IMG/VR virus record: IMGVR_UViG_3300037465_000011
Coordinates: 1-27,604 of that record
Source: a virus
Lineage: Duplodnaviria > Caudoviricetes
DNA: 27,604 nt
Reading direction: 5' to 3' (one strand)
In this document: one piece after another, positions 17,929 through 27,604 of the stretch
Layout: the number at the start of each line of letters is the position of its first letter
How positions within the stretch are numbered: the stretch's first letter is position 1
Made by a program: the position numbers and the translations under genes
The notes under the pieces: model-generated
Database searches by the model: none
The model's input: only the letters and a program-made list of their open reading frames with translations
What the model was told of the DNA's origin: nothing

Positions 17929-18435
17929 ATGCGCTTCATCGTCCTGTCGCTCCCGCGATCGCGAACGGCGTGGCTGGCGCACTGGCTAGGCGTCCCGCAT
18001 GAGCCGCTCGCGGAGTGCTCGTCGATATGCGACCTGGATTGCGAAGGCTTGGTTGACACGACGGCAGTCATGTTCTGGCGGACCCTGGTCAGAAAGTGGC
18101 CAGCCGCGGCGTTTGTGATCGTCAAGCGGGACCCCGACGAGGTTAGAGAGTCGCTGCGCAAGATCAAGGCTCCGTGCCTGGTTTCGATCGCGCTTACGCA
18201 CTTGCGTCGAGCCGAGAAGGAGTTGGGTCAGGCGCTAGTGGTTGACTACCGCGATATGAATGCACGACTCCCGGAAATCTGGCGGGTGTGCAAGAACACG
18301 CCTTTCGATCAAGCATGGACGATGCAGTGTGTGGCTCAGAACATACAATGCAACCCGATGGCGATGCGCCATCGGTTCGATCCGGCACGATTCAAGGCGC
18401 TTCAGGAGGAACAATGGCAACTGCTGACGGCATGA
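17929..18435 (+). CDS. Sulfotransferase-like P-loop protein (168 aa)
   Basis: FIVLSLPRSRTAWLAHWL resembles the 5'-PSB loop (PRSGT), followed by HEP; FVIVKRDPDEVRES resembles the 3'-PB motif (RDPxDxxxS). Confidence 0.65.
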   Translation: MRFIVLSLPRSRTAWLAHWLGVPHEPLAECSSICDLDCEGLVDTTAVMFWRTLVRKWPAAAFVIVKRDPDEVRESLRKIKAPCLVSIALTHLRRAEKELGQALVVDYRDMNARLPEIWRVCKNTPFDQAWTMQCVAQNIQCNPMAMRHRFDPARFKALQEEQWQLLTA

Positions 18436-18912: not shown

Positions 18913-19893
18913 ATGGGCTGGGAAGTCGTTGGCGACACCCTGACGCAGATCGGGCTCGCCGGGATTCAGAACGAGTTTTACGACCGGCGCCGGCAAAAAG
19001 AGCTTGAGGACGCCGACAAGCGTCGCAAGCAGCAGATCACGGAGAAGGAAGCCGCCGAGCGGAAGAAAGCCGATGAGCTCTACAACGCGCTGAAGCCGAG
19101 GCTCGGCGACGAAGGTGCTCGCGCCGTTGCGTACGGCGGACTATCGGTGAATGAATGGCTGGCGACGAAGGAGCAAGACGACCCTTACCAGCAGTGGCTC
19201 AGTGCGTTGCCTGAAGCCGAGTTGGCGAAGGTGTATCGCATACGTTCCGGGCTCGCCCCGAAAGCCCAGGCGCCGAAGCCGTCGAAGCCGAGCTACGACA
19301 AGATCATCATGCCGGACGGGAACGAGGCGTATCACCCCAAGGGTGAGCCGCTGCCGAAGGGGGCTCGGTTCTACACCGCTGGTGGCCGCGGCGACAAGCC
19401 GAGCTACGACAAGATCATCATGCCGGACGGGAGCGAGGCGTATCACCCCAAGGGTGAGCCGCTGCCGAGGGGGGCTCGGTTCTACACCGCTGGTGGCCGC
19501 GGCGACAAAGAGGATCGAGGCTTCACTCGGAGTGAGGCGCTCGCACTGGCGAAGTCTGAAATCTCCGATCTCGAAATGAACGAGCGCGAGCGTCGTGGCT
19601 ACATCGAACGGCGCATGGCGACGCTCGGCTATAACAGTGACGGCAAGCGCGCGCCGGAAGGCGCGATGGACCGAGCGCGTGCCTACATCGCCGCCCTGAA
19701 TCGCTACATGAACGACGAAACGCCCGGGCTAGCTCGCGATCCGAACCTGCCCGCGCGCGCGCAACCATCCACTGCTGGCGGCCGCGGCTCATCGCCAGAA
19801 AACCCCATTGACGTAGCATCCCCGGAAGAAGCGTCGAAGCAACCGCCGGGTACGTGGATTCGCCTACCAAACGGTGAAGTCGGGCAAACCTGA
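18913..19893 (+). CDS. Putative internal virion / ejection protein (326 aa) with an internal duplication
   Basis: GGAGGA SD, charged helical sequence, C-terminal LPPGT-like motif (QPPGTWIRLPNG), and TGATG coupling to the giant gene. Confidence 0.7.
   Translation: MGWEVVGDTLTQIGLAGIQNEFYDRRRQKELEDADKRRKQQITEKEAAERKKADELYNALKPRLGDEGARAVAYGGLSVNEWLATKEQDDPYQQWLSALPEAELAKVYRIRSGLAPKAQAPKPSKPSYDKIIMPDGNEAYHPKGEPLPKGARFYTAGGRGDKPSYDKIIMPDGSEAYHPKGEPLPRGARFYTAGGRGDKEDRGFTRSEALALAKSEISDLEMNERERRGYIERRMATLGYNSDGKRAPEGAMDRARAYIAALNRYMNDETPGLARDPNLPARAQPSTAGGRGSSPENPIDVASPEEASKQPPGTWIRLPNGEVGQT
19285..19508 (+). repeat. Tandem 111-bp duplication (2 copies, 37 aa each)
   Basis: Copies start at 19285 and 19396 and differ at only two positions (aac/agc, aag/agg): KPSYDKIIMPDG[N/S]EAYHPKGEPLP[K/R]GARFYTAGGRGD. 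Confidence 0.95.
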
Positions 19894-22800
19894 TGGCCGC
19901 ATGGTGGGAGGACCCGTCGAAGTACCAGCCGGCGCCGGTCGCTGGGGCGAGCAAGCGGAAGTGGTGGGAGGACCCGTCGAAGTATGGCGAGCCGACCATG
20001 GGCGCACCGGAGCCCGTTCCGCTGTCGCAGGAGGAACGCGAGGCTGCCGACGACCCCGGGTTTTGGGGCACCACACGCGAACTCGCCAAGGCCAACCTTG
20101 AGACGCAGGTTGCCGGGCTGATGCGCGCCTCCGGCGAGGCTCCGCAGGCAGCCCGCGAGCGCATCGCCGCAGCCATGCCCAACACCGGCGATCCACGCGA
20201 GGACGCCACCCGCCTACTCCGCGCGCCCCTGAGCGTCGCCCGAGCCGCGTTCGACCTTCCGGCGATGGTAACGGAAGTCGCGATACCGGACTACTTCGCC
20301 GAACAACGCCGCATCGGCGAAGAACTCGGCGACCTTGCCTCGGCTACGCGCGAGAAAGTCGCCCCCTACACTGAAACCTGGGAAACCTCGCCGCCGCTGT
20401 ACGTGGCGCAGCAGGGACTCGCGCAGATTCCGACCATGGCCGGCGCCATGCTGGCGTCGCGTGTCAATCCGACGGCCGGCACCGCGGTGCTTACGGCGCT
20501 CGCTGGCGGTGCGTCCTACCAGAAGTCCCGCGAGGAAGGGCTGACGCCGGTCGAGGCGCAGGCCCGAGCGGCCGTGGAAGGGCCGGTAGAAGGCATCACC
20601 GAGCGCATCCCGTTCGCTGTGGCGCTAGGACGCGCAGGAGCGGCCCTGCGCGGCGTTGTCGGCGAGCGCGCCGCAAAGGTCATCACCGACAACATCGCCG
20701 CCCGCGTGGCCGCTACAGGCGCTACGGAGGCCACGCAAGAAGTGCTGGCCGAGTCCGTCAGCATGGCCTACGAAGCGGGCGAGCTTGGTCGCGACATTCC
20801 GGCCGATCAGGTTCTGAGTCGGCTGCGGGATGCCGGCTTGATCGGTGCGGCGATCGGCGGACCTCTAGGCGCGGCCGGTTACACCGCCGAACCGCAGCCC
20901 CGCGCCGCCGCCAGCCGGGAGCCCACGATCGACGACTACCGCGAGGCTGCCGCGTTTCTGACTCCGCGAGCCCGCGCCGAACCGGCTCCTGTACAGCCCC
21001 GCGCCGCCGTCCGCCAAGCCCGCCTCGACGCACTCAAGGCCGCCCGTGCCCGTACCGACGATCCGGCCACGCAAGGCTCCCTGGACGCCACCGTAGCCGT
21101 CGAAGAGGCCCGGGCGCGGCAAGAGGCCAAGCCGCTGCCTGTAGCGCCTGTAGCGGCTCCTGAGGGGACTAGCAAGGAACAAACCACGGGTGGGTTAATT
21201 CCCGAGTCCGATGACCTCTCCGCCCGCCTCCAATCCGAAATGCTGCGCCGCGCTCAAGCCGAGTTCGACGCCCGCGGCAAGGCACTCGCGGATGCGGCTG
21301 GCGGGCTCGCGGCGCCGGAGGCGGTGGAATCGCTGGTGTCGGAACTGGCGCAGCGGTATGGTGTCGAGCGTGGACAGATCACCGGCCTTCCCGACACTGC
21401 AAGCGATGGCGCGAGTGTGCGCCTCGAACCCGGACTTGAGCCTCAGCCTGGAGCGGCATCCGCCGTCAGCGCAGGGTCGGCCGGCGTACTACAAACTGTA
21501 CGCAGCGACGGATCGAGCCCGCCCGTTGTGGCAGGCCGAAATGCCGTGGCTGGAATGGCTCAAGATGAGCCTTTGGTACGCTCGGTCACTGCCCCGTACG
21601 CCACAGCCACCACTCCCGTAGATGGCGACCAAGCACGTCCGCCCGACGTTCCGGCTTCGCCGCGGCCGCTTCCTGTGGCTGCGGAGCAGCCTTTGGCTGG
21701 CGCCGCACTGGCGGCCGACGACGCTGGTGCTGTGGCGCCCCAAGTTCAGCCGCTCGACCCCGCCGCCCGCCGCGCCGCCGACTTCGAGCAGCGCCTAGCC
21801 GACCTCCAGGCCGGCGACAACCCTCTTACCGAGCAGCAGGTAGCGCGCGTCCGGGAGCGGATGCGGCGCGAGGAACCGATCGACTCCGTTACCGGCCTGT
21901 ACCAGCGCGGAGACCTTGTTCCAACGATCGATGTTGCGAAGGAGCGTAGCGCCACCGAGCCCGTCATCTACGTCGAGTCCGACATGGTGAACTTGGGCGG
22001 GCTCAACGAGAACCTCGGCAACAACCGCGCCGATCCGCACTTGCGCCAGTTCGCGCAGACGGTCAAGACTGCGCTCAAGAGGGCCGGCGGCGAGTCCGTC
22101 GTGATCCGCAAGGGAGGTGATGAAGTCGGGGCGATCGTCGTCGGCCTGACACAGCCGCAAGTCGAAGCGGCGATGGATCAGGCGCGCGTCGAGTTCGCGC
22201 AGTACGCACGCGACCAAGGTATCGACGCCGTGCCTCGCAAGCGCGGCGGCCCGCCGACCGGAACCGGCTTGCACTACGGCGTTTCCGTGATCCAGCCGAA
22301 CCTTGACGCGGACGCTATACTGAGTGAAGCCGACACGCTGGTGGAGGCTCGCAAACTAGGGGCGCCTTATGGGTCAGGAACGGTTGAAGCGGCTGGGACT
22401 GGACAAGGTGCCGGAGGCGCAACGTCGGGCGGTCTTGGACAGGATGTACAGCGAGCGCAAGTCGGAGAACGACCGGAAGCGGGCGGAGTACGAACGGCGG
22501 CAGAAGCCGAAGGGCTGAGCTATAGGCTACCTGTCGAACCGACCACGCAAGCCGGAACAGGCGTTCGGCCTGCCTCTACAACGGAATTGGCGCAGGGTGA
22601 CGTTCGCAAAGCCGCCGTCCGCTCCATCATCGAGCGCAAGCACGGCGCCCGATTCGCGCGCAAGGCGGTAGACGGCGGGCTGGTCCCCGAGATTCCCGAA
22701 GGCGCATCCGACGCCGACGTACTGGCGGCCGTCGAGCGCGACACCGTAGCCGCAGCCGTCGAGTCCGCGCAGGACACCGACGAGTACCGCAGCGGCAATC

Positions 22801-25800
22801 GCCGAGAGGCCGTCGAGCGCGCGCTGAACCGCATGGGCATCGCCATGTCCGCGATCGAGCGCGACTGGCGTCCCATCGTCGAGCGCGACTGGCGTCTCAT
22901 CGTCGAGCCTGCCGTCACCAAGCCCAAGGTTCCGCCGACCTCCACCAAGAACGAGACGATGCGGGCCGAGCGCGAGGAATCCGGGCGCGACCCGATCCTG
23001 CGCGAAGCCGCCCGCAGCAACGAGGAAACACTAGCGGCCGCCCGCGAGACACTGGCGAAGAACCCGAACGCTGGACGCGAAATCGTCGATCGGTTGCGCA
23101 ACAGCACCAGCGCCGATATCTCGCTCGACGACGAGGCCGTACTGCTGATCGAAAAGGTCACGCTGCGCAACCAGCGCAACGACGCCGCCGAGCGCGCATC
23201 GGACCAGAACGCTACCGAGGAAAGCCGCCGCGTCGCCAAGGAACAGTGGCAGGAGGCCGAGGAACGGATCAACGCGATTGACCAAGCCACGTACCAGTCC
23301 GGCAAGGAATGGGGGCGCCTGGGTCAGTTCCGACAGCGGATGTTGCGCGAGGATTTCACGTTCGAGGCGCTGGAACGCAAAGAACGTGTTCGCGAGGGGC
23401 GCCCGCTGACGCAGGAGGAATCGGCCAAGCTCAAGGAGCAGGCCGACAAGATCGCGGTGCTGCAAGCTCAGAACGAACGCACGCAGAAGGCACTTGAGGA
23501 TGCGCTGTTCCGCCAAGCGTCCGAGGACACGTACGACGCCATCGTGAAGCAGATGGCCGAGACGTTCGGCGGCAAGAAACGCAAGCGCCCGACGCTCGAC
23601 AAGCTCAAGCAGTGGAACGACGAGTCCAGGGCCGCGCTCGACAAGATGCTCGGTCGCTTGAGCGCTGGCGTCGATCCCACGGCATTCTTCCACCTGTCCC
23701 GCATCGGCCTGTACCAGTTTGCGAAAGGCTACGTGCAGCTTGTGGACTGGATGACGCAGATGAAGGTCGCGCTCGGCGTCAGGCTGTTCAACCTGTCGCG
23801 GCCGGCGCTGCCTGACGTGTACGCGGCGGCGAAGGCACTGGCGACGCCGGAGCAGCGTACCGCCGAAGCCGCCGCACCGAAGCCGGCCACTATCGTCGAG
23901 CAGATCGACCCGCAGAACCTCACGCACAAGGACGTGGCCGACCTCGCGCGAGCACACATCCGCGCTGGCGTGCATGGTGAGGCTGCGGTCATGAAGGCCG
24001 TGCACGCGGACCTCGCCAAGATCGTGGACGGCATCACCGAGCGCGACGTGCGGCGGCTGTTTACCGAGTACGGACAGGCCGCGTTCCCGAGTCGCGAAGC
24101 CGATCGCGTCGAACTGCGCGAACTTCGGGCGCTGGTGCAGTTACAGGAGTCGATCGACCGATTGGCTGAAGGACGGGACCCGTTGCGCTCAGGCCCGCAG
24201 CGCGACAAAGACACGCAGGCGATCCGCGAAAAGCGGATGCTGCTGAACGACATGCTGAAGGCTCGCGCGCGTGCGTCGGTGGCATCACCGGAGAAACTGG
24301 CGACGTACCAGGAAGCGCGCGCGAACAACCTCAAGCACCAGATCGAGGATTTGGAGAAGCAGATCGCGACCGGCGAGCGTCCGCAGCATGTTCCGCCACC
24401 GGAGCCGTCGCCGGAAGTGAAGCGGTTGACCGAACAGCGTGACGCACTGCGGCGGCGCATTCAGGAAATCGACGCGCAGAACAAGGGACCGCCGAAGGAA
24501 ACAGCACAGCAGCGATACTTGCGCCAGCGTGAGGAATCGCTGGCGGCGCAGATTGATGCGCTGACGAAGCGCGTTGCCGGCGAGTCTGCGGCGGCGAAGG
24601 ACGACACGCCGAAGCCGACGACACCGGAACTGGAGAGGTTGAAGGCGGCGCTGGATGGCCTACGCAAGCAACTGCGCGCGATCGAGCGTCCGCCTGCGAC
24701 GCCGGAGGCCCGCGCCAAGGCCGCGCGCCTGTCGCAGCTTCGCCAGCAGATCAAGGTGCTCGAAGAGCGTATCGCGACCGGCAAGAAGTCGGCGACAGGG
24801 CCGCGGCAAGACGTGCCGGACGCCGAGACTCAGGCGTTGATCGACCAGCGCGACGCACTGCGCGCCAAGATCAAGGCCGCAGAGGAAGCCGCGAATCCGC
24901 CGCTGACCGAGGAACAGCAGTACCAGCGCACACGCGCCAAGGGCCTGCAACGACTGCTGCGCGACGTACAGGCCCGCAACGCTGCCGGCGACTTCGCGCT
25001 CCGTGTGCGCCCGCCGCCGCGTGACCTCGACGCCGCGAACAAGGAAGCCAAGTACAAGCTCGATCAGGCCAAGATGGAGTTTGCGCGGTGGCAGTTCGAG
25101 ATGGAAATGCGCAAGCGACCGCTGTTGAAGCGCATCTTCGACGTAACCGTGGTGCAGCCGTTGAACCTCGCGCGTGCGTCCTTGATTGGTCTTGACCTGG
25201 CGGCTGTGCTGCGGCAGGGCGGCTTCATCGTGCTTGGGCACCCGATCCGCGGCGTCAAGGCGATGGTGCCGATGTTCCGCGCGATGGTGTCGGAGGTGCA
25301 GGCGCACGCGATCGAGGACGCCATCCACAACCGCCCGAACGCCGACCTGTACGAGAAGGCCAAGCTCGAACTGACGAAGCGCAGCAGCTTCAAGCTGTCG
25401 GAAATCGAGGAACAGTACCAGTCGCGGTGGCTGGAAAAACTGCCGTGGTGGACCGTCGCCGGACCCATCATGCGCGGCTCGCAACGCGCGTTCACGACGT
25501 TCCTCAACGTGTTGCGGGCCGACACCTTCGACGCGATGGCGGCAGGCCTGAGCCTGCGCCGAAAACCGACGCTCGACGAAGCCAAGATCATCGCGAACTA
25601 CGTCAACGTCGCGACCGGGCGCGGCAAGATCGGCACCAAGGGCACAACCGGAACCGGGCTCAACACCGTGTTCTTCGCGCCGCGGCTGGTGGCGTCGCGG
25701 TTCAACCTGTTAGCTGGTCAACCGATGTACGGCGGCACCGCCCGCACGCGTGCCTACATCGCCGCTGAATACGCGCGGTTCCTCATGGGCACGGCCGCGG

Positions 25801-26360
25801 CCATCGCGCTGCTCATGTGGGGGCTCAGCGATGACGACGACAAAGCCACGTTGGAGCTTGATCCGCGCTCGAGCGACTTCGGCAAGGTGAAGATCGGCAA
25901 CACGCGCATTGACCCGCTGGCTGGGCTGGCACAAGTTACCGTGTTCCTGTCGCGCGTGGCGACCGGCGTCACGATCACGTCGAAGGGCGAAATGAAGCCG
26001 CTGCGCAACGCCTACCGGCTGTTCGACGATGGCACTCGGACATGGCATGGCTACCGACTCAAGTATCGCGAAGTAGCCTACGGTGACGACACCACTTACG
26101 ACGTGCTGACACGATTCCTGCGCACGAAGCTGGCGCCGTTCCCTGGAACAATGGTGAACCTAGCCGTTGGGGAGAACGTGGTCGGGGAGCCTGTGGGGCC
26201 GGATGATGCCGCGCTGAGTCTCGTCACCCCGCTGTCGGTGCAGAACGTTGCCGACGTGATGGAAGAGCACGGTATGCCGAAGGGCTCGGCGATCACTATG
26301 CTGGAACTGCTCGGGATGAGCGTGAGTCACTACGACGCGCACGCCAAACGCAAGGAGTAG
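19893..26360 (+). CDS. Giant internal virion / DNA-transfer (polyvalent-type) protein, 2155 aa, containing a GGDEF-like domain
   Basis: Last and largest gene of the ejection cluster. It has an Ala/Gly-rich amphipathic N-terminal region (EG.TE...EA.QE), a GGDEF-like domain at about aa 664-821, helical repeats, and a C-terminal region with DPRSSDFGKVKIGNTRID. Confidence 0.85.
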   Translation: MAAWWEDPSKYQPAPVAGASKRKWWEDPSKYGEPTMGAPEPVPLSQEEREAADDPGFWGTTRELAKANLETQVAGLMRASGEAPQAARERIAAAMPNTGDPREDATRLLRAPLSVARAAFDLPAMVTEVAIPDYFAEQRRIGEELGDLASATREKVAPYTETWETSPPLYVAQQGLAQIPTMAGAMLASRVNPTAGTAVLTALAGGASYQKSREEGLTPVEAQARAAVEGPVEGITERIPFAVALGRAGAALRGVVGERAAKVITDNIAARVAATGATEATQEVLAESVSMAYEAGELGRDIPADQVLSRLRDAGLIGAAIGGPLGAAGYTAEPQPRAAASREPTIDDYREAAAFLTPRARAEPAPVQPRAAVRQARLDALKAARARTDDPATQGSLDATVAVEEARARQEAKPLPVAPVAAPEGTSKEQTTGGLIPESDDLSARLQSEMLRRAQAEFDARGKALADAAGGLAAPEAVESLVSELAQRYGVERGQITGLPDTASDGASVRLEPGLEPQPGAASAVSAGSAGVLQTVRSDGSSPPVVAGRNAVAGMAQDEPLVRSVTAPYATATTPVDGDQARPPDVPASPRPLPVAAEQPLAGAALAADDAGAVAPQVQPLDPAARRAADFEQRLADLQAGDNPLTEQQVARVRERMRREEPIDSVTGLYQRGDLVPTIDVAKERSATEPVIYVESDMVNLGGLNENLGNNRADPHLRQFAQTVKTALKRAGGESVVIRKGGDEVGAIVVGLTQPQVEAAMDQARVEFAQYARDQGIDAVPRKRGGPPTGTGLHYGVSVIQPNLDADAILSEADTLVEARKLGAPYGSGTVEAAGTGQGAGGATSGGLGQDVQRAQVGERPEAGGVRTAAEAEGLSYRLPVEPTTQAGTGVRPASTTELAQGDVRKAAVRSIIERKHGARFARKAVDGGLVPEIPEGASDADVLAAVERDTVAAAVESAQDTDEYRSGNRREAVERALNRMGIAMSAIERDWRPIVERDWRLIVEPAVTKPKVPPTSTKNETMRAEREESGRDPILREAARSNEETLAAARETLAKNPNAGREIVDRLRNSTSADISLDDEAVLLIEKVTLRNQRNDAAERASDQNATEESRRVAKEQWQEAEERINAIDQATYQSGKEWGRLGQFRQRMLREDFTFEALERKERVREGRPLTQEESAKLKEQADKIAVLQAQNERTQKALEDALFRQASEDTYDAIVKQMAETFGGKKRKRPTLDKLKQWNDESRAALDKMLGRLSAGVDPTAFFHLSRIGLYQFAKGYVQLVDWMTQMKVALGVRLFNLSRPALPDVYAAAKALATPEQRTAEAAAPKPATIVEQIDPQNLTHKDVADLARAHIRAGVHGEAAVMKAVHADLAKIVDGITERDVRRLFTEYGQAAFPSREADRVELRELRALVQLQESIDRLAEGRDPLRSGPQRDKDTQAIREKRMLLNDMLKARARASVASPEKLATYQEARANNLKHQIEDLEKQIATGERPQHVPPPEPSPEVKRLTEQRDALRRRIQEIDAQNKGPPKETAQQRYLRQREESLAAQIDALTKRVAGESAAAKDDTPKPTTPELERLKAALDGLRKQLRAIERPPATPEARAKAARLSQLRQQIKVLEERIATGKKSATGPRQDVPDAETQALIDQRDALRAKIKAAEEAANPPLTEEQQYQRTRAKGLQRLLRDVQARNAAGDFALRVRPPPRDLDAANKEAKYKLDQAKMEFARWQFEMEMRKRPLLKRIFDVTVVQPLNLARASLIGLDLAAVLRQGGFIVLGHPIRGVKAMVPMFRAMVSEVQAHAIEDAIHNRPNADLYEKAKLELTKRSSFKLSEIEEQYQSRWLEKLPWWTVAGPIMRGSQRAFTTFLNVLRADTFDAMAAGLSLRRKPTLDEAKIIANYVNVATGRGKIGTKGTTGTGLNTVFFAPRLVASRFNLLAGQPMYGGTARTRAYIAAEYARFLMGTAAAIALLMWGLSDDDDKATLELDPRSSDFGKVKIGNTRIDPLAGLAQVTVFLSRVATGVTITSKGEMKPLRNAYRLFDDGTRTWHGYRLKYREVAYGDDTTYDVLTRFLRTKLAPFPGTMVNLAVGENVVGEPVGPDDAALSLVTPLSVQNVADVMEEHGMPKGSAITMLELLGMSVSHYDAHAKRKE
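19902..19984 (+). repeat. 23-bp direct repeat encoding WWEDPSKY twice
   Basis: tggtgggaggacccgtcgaagta occurs at 19902 and 19962. Confidence 0.9.
21358..21621 (+). CDS. Candidate overprinted ORF A (+1 frame, 87 aa) nested in the giant gene
   Basis: MVSSVDRSPAFPTLQAMARVC...AYYKLYAATDRARPLWQAEMPWLEWLKMSLWYARSL. The host frame loses its G/C third-position bias here. The start is uncertain. Confidence 0.5.
   Translation: MVSSVDRSPAFPTLQAMARVCASNPDLSLSLERHPPSAQGRPAYYKLYAATDRARPLWQAEMPWLEWLKMSLWYARSLPRTPQPPLP
21622..21798 (+). CDS. Candidate overprinted ORF B (+1 frame, 58 aa)
   Basis: ATG immediately follows the TAG of ORF A (TAGATG); MATKHVRPTFRLRRGRFLWLRSSLWLAPHWRPTTLVLWRPKF... Confidence 0.35.
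   Translation: MATKHVRPTFRLRRGRFLWLRSSLWLAPHWRPTTLVLWRPKFSRSTPPPAAPPTSSSA
21882..22356 (+). other. GGDEF-like (diguanylate cyclase fold) domain within the giant protein
   Basis: DSVTGLYQR, ESDMVNLGGLNENLGNNRAD..L, IRKGGDEV (GGDEV at 22113-22127), GLHYGVS and ADTLVEARK are all in canonical order and spacing. Confidence 0.85.
22369..22518 (+). CDS. Candidate overprinted ORF C (+1 frame, 49 aa) directly after the GGDEF domain
   Basis: AGGGG SD 6 nt before ATG; MGQERLKRLGLDKVPEAQRRAVLDRMYSERKSENDRKRAEYERRQKPKG. Codon bias switches to this frame. Confidence 0.6.
   Translation: MGQERLKRLGLDKVPEAQRRAVLDRMYSERKSENDRKRAEYERRQKPKG
22855..22908 (+). repeat. 24-bp in-frame tandem duplication (ERDWR[P/L]IV x2)
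   Basis: tcgagcgcgactggcgtc[c/t]catcg twice, plus a partial tcgagc. Confidence 0.9.
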
Positions 26361-26463
26361 CAGCAGCGGCAGCTGTGGTGGACGCCGTATCAACCGCGCG
26401 CACGTCAGGCACAGCGGTACATACGGTCCCATGCGCGCTGACGTTCCAGCGACCGGCGCGCCG

Positions 26464-26757
26464 TCACTTCGGCTTCCTCCGCTCGGCCTTGCGGGCGGCG
26501 AGTAGCCTGTCGACGGCTTTGTGCAACCGTGTCAGTTCCTGGCCGTAGATGCTGCCGGAGGTTGCCCGAGTACTGAACGCCACGGCTGCGCGCACGAGCC
26601 AACGCTCCGCCTCCGCTACCGTCGTCCGCCGCTGATCCGCGCGGCTGCTGCGCTTGTGCGTCTGCACGTCGGCGAACTTGCCGCGCTTTCGGACGGCGTA
26701 GAGCTTGGTGCCGGTCTTGCTGCGGTGCGTGGTGCGGGTCACGGTCTTGCGCTTCAT
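26464..26757 (-). CDS. Small, very basic hypothetical protein (97 aa)
   Basis: ATG at 26757 overlaps the stop of the upstream gene; MKRKTVTRTTHRSKTGTKLYAVRKRGKFADVQTHKRS... Confidence 0.65.
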   Translation of the reverse strand: MKRKTVTRTTHRSKTGTKLYAVRKRGKFADVQTHKRSSRADQRRTTVAEAERWLVRAAVAFSTRATSGSIYGQELTRLHKAVDRLLAARKAERRKPK

Positions 26758-26978
26758 GGCACGTACTCGCGTTGGCACAACTCACCCGGCCGCTGCACGT
26801 AAACGGAGGCGCCGACGTTCCATGCGTTAGGGTGGCGCTTGCCGATGCTGCCACCGCCTATCGGACGCATCACCGTGCGCTGGTCGCCGAGCGTGCAGAC
26901 GAGCGCGTTAGGCGATGGCGGTGAGTTGCAGGCGGTCATGGCCAGCGCGGCGGCGGTGAGCAGCATGATCCGGTTCAT
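26754..26978 (-). CDS. Putative lipoprotein (74 aa)
   Basis: MNRIMLLTAAALAMTAC is a signal peptide with a lipobox-like MTA-C. ATG 26978 is internal to the track's 135-aa ORF. Confidence 0.65.
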   Translation of the reverse strand: MNRIMLLTAAALAMTACNSPPSPNALVCTLGDQRTVMRPIGGGSIGKRHPNAWNVGASVYVQRPGELCQREYVP

Positions 26979-27161
26979 TTCAGGTCCGCCGCGAACAAGA
27001 GCCCGGCGATGATCCACACGACGTGGACGCAGATCAACACAAAGCCGCGCATCCCGAGTCTCCCACGGCAGCCACCATGTCCAGCCCCATCCGGCGTACA
27101 GGACCAGCACGACAAACGCGGCGACGAGCATGCAGATGCCGAGCAGGCGCAAGCCGCTCAC
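26975..27161 (-). pseudogene. Small two-transmembrane protein gene apparently split by a frameshift near 27055-27062 (or two tiny genes)
   Basis: TM1 (LLGICMLVAAFVVLVLYAGWGW) is in one frame. TM2 (MRGFVLICVHVVWIIAGLLFAADLK*) is in the +1 frame and ends in an ATGA overlap with the lipoprotein start. Confidence 0.5.
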
Positions 27162-27379
27162 GACGCCGCATCCTTCGTTAGGTCCGGCACCGCAATTCCA
27201 TCACGCCCGATCCGCAGCAACTCATCCTCGGTCGCCCACGACGCATCCAGTTCCGGCGTCAGTTCCTTGCGCACGGACGCCTCGGCCTCGCTGCGGCTGA
27301 AGGCGCGACGGTAGTGGACCGCGCCGGTATCGCGGACGCGGACGACGACGGTGCGGGCGATCTTGGTGCGCTTGCTCAT
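27158..27379 (-). CDS. Small phage hypothetical protein (73 aa)
   Basis: AGGA SD and GTGA overlap with the downstream gene. Confidence 0.7.
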   Translation of the reverse strand: MSKRTKIARTVVVRVRDTGAVHYRRAFSRSEAEASVRKELTPELDASWATEDELLRIGRDGIAVPDLTKDAAS

Positions 27380-27603
27380 GATGATGCTGTCCTAGGTTGG
27401 TGGTTGGGATTGTTCGACTTCGGCTCACGTTTGCCGATGATGACGACGATCAGCCCCGGCACGCGCTTGCGAATCATGATGCGGCGTCCTTGCGCGGCCG
27501 CGCGCGCACGTAGGTTACTGCGCCAACGGCAGATGTTCGGCGCGAGACTGCGCGGGACGCAGAAGCCGTGGCCGAGCGGTAGCGTCAGCCACGGCCAGTA
27601 GCA
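27376..27603 (-). CDS. 3' part of a small basic, possibly DNA-binding phage protein (truncated by the window edge)
   Basis: Open frame ...CYWPWLTLPLGHGFCVPRSLAPNICRWRSNLRARAAAQGRRIMIRKRVPGLIVVIIGKR...ASS*, with an ATGA overlap with the next gene. It is not in the ORF track. It resembles small YP(F/W)..L..G.SF.VP phage proteins. Confidence 0.55.
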   Translation of the reverse strand, partial: CYWPWLTLPLGHGFCVPRSLAPNICRWRSNLRARAAAQGRRIMIRKRVPGLIVVIIGKREPKSNNPNHQPRTASS

Positions 27604-27604
27604 G

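Follow-up and report, generated by a model that had tools for sequence, protein, structure and literature searches.

Within a giant phage gene, a +1-frame gene encodes a conserved candidate partner of a GGDEF-fold domain

The window analyzed here, a 27.6-kb virus record (27,604 nucleotides) whose sequence occurs in freshwater metagenome runs, contains a giant gene with a second gene nested inside it. The nested gene, ORF3, starts within a few codons of the end of a GGDEF-fold domain and encodes a 49-residue peptide in the +1 frame. ORF3 is a real gene, under selection in its own frame and tied to one clade of GGDEF domains. Domain and peptide probably constitute a two-part module in which the peptide binds and inhibits the domain, in the manner of an immunity protein. 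An effector-immunity-like pair hidden in one gene had been suspected in an initial annotation of this DNA. For ORF3 that suspicion stands because of the co-occurrence of the two parts, selection in the +1 frame, a Shine-Dalgarno-like (SD) site, the eCIS-type architecture of relatives, free and orphan peptide homologues, and a predicted complex; for two upstream +1 ORFs it does not. The features are listed in Table 1.

Table 1. Features of the giant gene and its nested reading frames
Feature	Position	Strand	Basis
Giant 2155-aa ORF	19893..26360	+	ORF call; end of podophage-like structural module
ORF1, 87 aa, +1 frame; open from 21211	21358..21621	+	Low-GC3 linker; weak SD
ORF2, 58 aa, +1 frame	21622..21798	+	No SD; ATG abuts the ORF1 stop
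Helical hairpin before the GGDEF domain (main frame, aa 623-659)	21759..21869	+	AlphaFold2 model
GGDEF-fold nucleotidyltransferase domain, distinct clade	21879..22355	+	Pfam, fold matches, column counts
SD-like site, 6 nt before the nested ATG	22358..22362	+	Sequence; anti-SD duplex energy
Nested gene ORF3, 49 aa, +1 frame; short helix and long helix	22369..22518	+	Conservation, +1 selection, predicted complex

The genes upstream of the giant ORF on the same (+) strand encode terminase, portal-like, major head, and adaptor proteins. Such a late or virion-gene neighborhood is a feature of the polyvalent proteins of Iyer et al. (2017, PMC5512222), which the GGDEF-bearing giant of the window resembles in standing beside virion genes; the text of that paper already includes GGDEF among phage polyvalent-protein domains and proposes packaging and injection. 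Judged from its gene position and that precedent, the 2155-aa protein is likely an internal, ejected protein of the polyvalent type. GGDEF is its only recognized Pfam domain. At least two distinct domain types were found in 6 of 8 related giants scanned, and the domains of its relatives include LPD1/3/5/38/39, ART-PolyVal, InPase, SNF2 helicase, and methylase. The C-terminal half is 33-49% identical to other GGDEF-bearing giants and 34% identical to a giant lacking the domain. No integrase or repressor was recognized among the 28 window proteins scanned, nor any sigma-70-like promoter in 19500-27604. Two DNA runs gave 11 variant sites, of which one lies in ORF2 and none is listed in ORF1 or ORF3. 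Elsewhere in the window, a sulfotransferase-family gene (PF17784, E 2.9e-6) was noted at 17929-18435 among tail-region genes, and the main frame carries a short tandem duplication downstream of the nested gene (22860-22910, two copies of a ∼7-residue unit).

Relatives of the domain were collected by DNA pattern scans blind to the peptide (loci L001-L127). With duplicates and chance matches set aside, the collection, which includes the window, comprised 77 ORFs with 94 distinct domains. A nested peptide was present in 31 of 35 long single-domain ORFs, so the co-occurrence with the domain that the initial annotation proposed to test among homologues held for ORF3; neither ORF1 nor ORF2 had homologues in the collections searched. 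In three of the four misses (L028, L077, and L118) the corresponding position is occupied by an SD-led +1 ORF with a divergent sequence, and the fourth (L105) has a 40.9-bit copy of the peptide 4 kb downstream. Among long tandem-domain ORFs the peptide was nested in 5 of 7, with no call in the other 2. Short single-domain ORFs (n = 15) gave 4 nested and 2 free copies, with no room for one in 1 case, and short tandem ORFs (n = 10) gave 1 nested and 3 free. No peptide was called in 14 short non-lipoprotein ORFs carrying the domain. A clade domain adjoined 68 of 70 profile matches, and with ORF3 itself as a phmmer query, domain-adjacent +1 peptides ranked first (best E 2.5e-4). The profile behind the class counts had been built from these same peptides, which gives weight to two independent checks. 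A profile from 20 viral peptides, with the window left out, gave ORF3 14.3 bits (E 0.054 among 25,112 segments). A reverse DNA scan for the peptide gave 23 loci, 17 of them directly behind a domain (one being a partial, 14-bit domain match); its 16 previously unseen contigs comprised 10 domain-adjacent copies and 6 orphans. The single giant homologue without the domain (L151, n = 1) has no comparable ORF.

The 51 aligned family members share the consensus MSxExRLxRLGLxHL, and the long helix of the ORF3 peptide spans residues 16-45. Selection in the +1 frame, for which a test had likewise been proposed, was found when the ORF3 family was examined in seven non-overlapping close pairs (domain identity 63-99%), none of which contains the window's own copy. 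Over the first 30 codons, synonymous and non-synonymous changes numbered 47 and 42 in the +1 frame versus 4 and 79 in the main frame; within the domain, the main-frame figures for these pairs were 404 and 294. Amino acid entropy, calculated over 40 of the 43 nested rows, was 1.43 bits in the +1 frame versus 2.47 bits in the main frame. An SD-like motif precedes 40 of the 43 nested copies, versus 409 of 2036 other +1 ATGs. At ORF3 the anti-SD duplex energy is -5.6 kcal/mol, compared with -5.8 for the major head gene, and the site falls outside the strict 4-mer list. A crude but supportive measure, the main-frame signature of the peptide in protein-only matches, was seen in 43 of 81 versus 263 of 4050 in the background. 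One +1 ORF that resembles the peptide and follows a domain (L123) ends after 10 codons and is possibly a decayed copy.

Gene callers had been expected to miss the nested gene, and they do: in an exact look-up among called proteins the window's peptide was absent, whereas free copies were present in 7 of 7 cases, as hypothetical or unnamed proteins. No family in Pfam, NCBIfam, or PHROGs fits more than 3 of the 51 members even at E 0.1, and the ESM Atlas match of ORF3 (0.75) lies below the usable range. The idea that +1 is a naturally permissive frame for the peptide was discarded, as the free copies (14 genes) have 29 stops in each alternative frame. The main frame over ORF3 encodes a Gly/Ala-rich spacer that needs only to stay open, and hence domain and partner can move between giants as a block. 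In a quick unrooted tree the gene has changed between nested and free at least three times; a free gene may have been swallowed by read-through, or a nested gene released.

Free peptide genes lie downstream of the domain at nine loci (L079, L084, L094, L113, L120, L139, L141, L142, and L146). At L141, L142, and L146 the order is an eCIS_core protein with this domain at its C-terminal end and then the free peptide gene. A further bacterial relative (P0063) has the domain C-terminal in a fusion with a trafficking domain, unlike the internal domain of the window. Orphan copies with no domain nearby account for 6 of the 23 reverse-scan loci (L143, L144, L147, L149, L150, and L132); genes for plasmid Rep, integrase, or DNA methylase are found nearby, and L143 directly follows an AHH nuclease/Imm11 gene pair. 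The orphans are possibly a protective stock against incoming effectors. Nested +1 copies were also observed inside bacterial multi-domain proteins (L055 and L069 from Variovorax, L051 from Trinickia, L063 and L066 from Nocardia), between or after tandem domains; each of the five genomes searched had a single copy.

Co-folding of the ORF3 peptide with the domain, a check proposed in the initial annotation, gave a score of 0.79 against 0.17 for the best control. Of 157 solved complexes, 116 attain the score mark used, as do 2 of 215 mismatched pairs, a calibration only roughly valid for the alignments used here. At least 92% of contacts are shared between prediction runs, and partner pLDDT is at least 80. 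The peptide is predicted to bind along the last helix of the domain with the catalytic Asp-Glu in the interface, which includes D743/E744 and the conserved peptide residues R5, R8, and L9; the best-resolved predicted contacts involve variable residues, and an Arg-to-Asp/Glu pair is not named in the output. The model supports binding, and inhibition does not follow from it. Mimicry by the peptide of the helical hairpin N-terminal to the domain (modeled with helices 6-23 and 30-42, pLDDT about 95) was rejected at an HHalign probability of 0.4%.

The same co-occurrence, selection, and predicted binding would fit a positive partner: an activator, a folding or packaging chaperone, or a dimerizer whose 30-residue helix joins two GGDEF halves, a task that falls to coiled coils in canonical cyclases. 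The long helix at 16-45 suits such a role, the fold matches of the domain include SiaC-SiaD, a complex of an activator with its cyclase, and GGDEF enzymes act as homodimers, as stated for GacA (PMC6456294). We nevertheless consider a positive partner unlikely. It leaves the orphan genes with no domain to assist, one of them in a toxin-immunity array; it does not account for peptide genes placed right behind eCIS-core C-terminal domains or for catalytic residues in the predicted interface; and tandem-domain proteins need no dimerizer, yet 9 of 17 keep the peptide. In tandem forms (L131, L139, L141, and others) an intact GGDE is often paired with a degenerate copy, which suggests a pseudo-dimer with one catalytic half-site.

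The domain itself had been noticed from the letters alone as GGDEF-like, and a Pfam match covering aa 663-821 of the giant protein (E 1.1e-9) agrees. Its model is confident (pLDDT 96), and its fold matches the diguanylate cyclases DgcB, WspR, and PleD, with a Foldseek E of 8e-12 to DgcB. Protein searches revealed a distinct clade with the motif NLGGLN...GGDE, or more fully DxxNLGGLN ... RxGGDE ... HPK, in which the catalytic acidic residues are retained; a profile search gave 252 representatives at E up to 1e-30. Locus searches that used the domain as a single-protein query gave no relative, and tblastn against annotated phages gave 1 weak match for the domain and 0 for the C-terminal half of the giant. 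The window domain carries D697, N705, D714, R739, G741-G742-D743-E744 (conforming to R-x-GG[DE]E), and K821, whose roles, such as the metal-binding Asp and the guanine-binding Asn/Asp, we take to be those of their PleD counterparts. Among 51 rows the metal-binding Asp is conserved in 50, Asn in 51, Arg in 49, GGDE in 49-51, and the C-terminal Lys in 47. The position of the DxFK lysine is Gly in 49 of 51, with an invariant NLGG where the canonical enzymes have FFK, and the chemistry may therefore differ from that of a standard cyclase.

At the guanine-reading position, which we presume to be equivalent to position 347 of GacA, the clade has Asn in 34 of 51 rows and Asp in 17, the window among the latter. 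It thus differs from Hypr GGDEF enzymes such as GacA, for which the available text of PMC6456294 gives Ser/Thr at position 347 as the criterion. The clade shares the fold and catalytic acidic residues of that enzyme and of PleD, WspR, and DgcB, and is unlike canonical cyclases in lacking a sensor domain and RxxD I-site, in having NLGG for FFK and an HPK insertion, and in possessing a dedicated small partner. No Arg is among the top residues of the I-site column, and the Pfam scan matched no sensor domain in the window's giant. In GacA, losing the I-site increased output 30-fold (PMC6456294). From its residues, the domain is likely an active, unregulated enzyme of uncertain product.

Nine solo lipoprotein-like proteins of about 270-450 aa carry this GGDEF clade (L058, L059, L065, L072, L073, L075, L081, L082, and L111), and none has the peptide beside it (0/9). 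The six placed in the tree form one branch, and all nine probably reflect one event. At L058 and L065 the gene adjoins three reverse-strand genes that we take to resemble twitching-motility ATPases.

We regard it as quite improbable that the nested gene is real and the domain, rather than being a toxic synthase, acts by nucleotide binding or degradation or by synthesis of a decoy signal harmless to growth, with a peptide that only tunes it. The invariant NLGG, the frequent Asn at the guanine-reading Asp position, the degenerate second domains of tandem forms, and a lipoprotein-like branch expected to lie apart from the cytoplasmic NTP pool are all in keeping with that account. It is opposed by the conservation of the metal-binding Asp, Asn, Arg, GGDE, and C-terminal Lys in 47-51 of 51 rows and by the toxin-like gene contexts (eCIS-core; AHH nuclease/Imm11 array).

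The three +1 ORFs that the initial annotation had listed are present, all offset by +1 from the main frame, and the fall in main-frame GC3 that it described in the linkers is real. Elsewhere GC3 is about 0.7-0.97; it drops to 0.55 at aa ∼500-580, recovers in the domain, and drops again to 0.38 at aa ∼820-860. A further dip to 0.60 at aa 401-440 (21093-21210) has stops in both other frames and no promoter-like site. In a test of openness by synonymous resampling at genome codon usage, the probability of no stop was 0.20 for ORF1 (over an interval including its own stop codon), 0.64 for ORF2, and 0.72 for ORF3, and the longest +1 run (140 codons) was shorter than the simulated mean (169). The +1 z-scores of the three ORFs, with local third-base composition modeled, were 2.3-3.4, against a mean of 1.84 (S.D. 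0.72, maximum 3.12) in 35 background windows, so that none stands clearly apart from background. The dips and the openness prove nothing alone. Openness and codon statistics were set aside as gene evidence, as they fail to separate real from shadow ORFs; as far as the sequence comparisons go, only conservation distinguishes ORF3 as real from the unsupported ORF1 and ORF2.

Placement in linkers was only partly right. The last ∼14 codons of ORF2 overlie the pre-domain helical hairpin, and the ORF1 start at 21358 is only an internal ATG of a 136-aa ORF that begins at 21211. For ORF1, no homologue was found in related loci or the protein collection, and its ESM Atlas match (0.79) is below the usable range; for ORF2, none was found in related loci or viral contigs. 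Related loci have no upstream ORF in common, and at the protein level the upstream linkers of the five architecturally closest giants are unrelated. ORF1 and ORF2 are unsupported as genes and lie outside the portable unit, which comprises the domain and the downstream peptide and not, as had been proposed, a cassette flanked by three ORFs. Coding-likeness in the +1 frame at aa ∼490-600 reaches a log-likelihood ratio of +0.25 (background mean -0.68, maximum -0.12); with this, the abutting stop and start, and such genes in other giants, ORF1 and ORF2 could be lineage-specific nested genes. In five giants (L004, L006, L007, L011, and L067) eight more SD-led, coding-like +1 ORFs were seen in linkers away from the GGDEF end, three of them in L006. 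Across 40 giant ORFs, SD-led ATG ORFs number 43 in +1 and 1 in +2, an asymmetry partly expected from base composition. Translation of all three +1 ORFs into regulators of the domain is very improbable: the GC3 dip with raised coding-likeness over aa ∼490-600, the ORF1 stop that abuts the ORF2 ATG, and lineage-specific nested +1 genes of other giants speak for it, and against it stand the absence of ORF1 and ORF2 homologues and of a common upstream ORF, the unrelated linkers, weak or no SD, openness expected by chance, and a variant at 21632 (n = 1) that is silent in the main frame and alters ORF2.

Precedents exist for each ingredient. Lambda Rz1 is a lysis lipoprotein whose gene is fully embedded in the +1 frame of Rz and which cooperates with the Rz product. 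ORF3 resembles it as a small +1-embedded gene whose product works with that of its host gene; the proteins are unrelated, and for the peptide here the predicted role is inhibition of an enzyme domain in the cytoplasm. Small phage peptides reported to bind YfiN (PMC8085984) likewise act on a diguanylate cyclase, but their target is a host enzyme, whereas the ORF3 peptide is predicted to target the phage's own domain. Polymorphic toxin-immunity pairs, including DUF4157/eCIS-core toxins, combine a trafficking domain, a C-terminal enzyme, a small conserved downstream gene, and orphans (10.1101/2021.10.19.465003), and their conserved small gene directly 3' of the enzyme domain is present here, nested in the window. 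Unlike in those pairs, the phage enzyme lies inside a giant protein, and the gene of its partner is embedded entirely in another frame. The main text of that paper does not mention GGDEF, and the text of PMC5512222, as distinct from its supplements, mentions no nested partner gene. GGDEF in polyvalent proteins, toxin-immunity pairs, and nested phage genes are thus known; for the partner of this clade, or for a polyvalent gene with an immunity-like gene inside it, we found no description in full-text searches, mostly judged by abstracts, and the supplements of PMC5512222 and 10.1101/2021.10.19.465003 might list the clade.

For the immunity-type module we infer a course of events in which toxicity, inhibition, product, and injection each have a part. 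Ribosomes would start at the internal SD and ATG on the same late mRNA, and the inhibitor made alongside the giant protein would keep the enzyme quiet during assembly. The giant protein would then be packaged and ejected without the small protein, and in the newly infected cell nothing would restrain the enzyme, which has neither sensor domain nor I-site. It might produce c-di-GMP or a related dinucleotide and so disturb host signaling or defense.

A broader scheme is conceivable, although we hold it with considerable reserve. Phage ejection proteins and bacterial eCIS-type toxins would share one GGDEF-derived effector clade, possibly making a non-standard dinucleotide, with its immunity gene hidden in the +1 frame of the carrier. 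Polyvalent giants would be disguised operons with several nested +1 genes, and bacterial orphan peptides would shield against the injected enzyme.

The module offers an answer to the question of how a phage can assemble virions that carry a potentially harmful enzyme and still spare the producer cell, and it would explain why these GGDEF domains could resist cloning alone. It also points to a class of genes inside giant phage genes that standard annotation misses, provides, for a GGDEF-fold enzyme, a putative small inhibitor that can be tested, and connects a candidate phage effector to bacterial eCIS-core toxin candidates.
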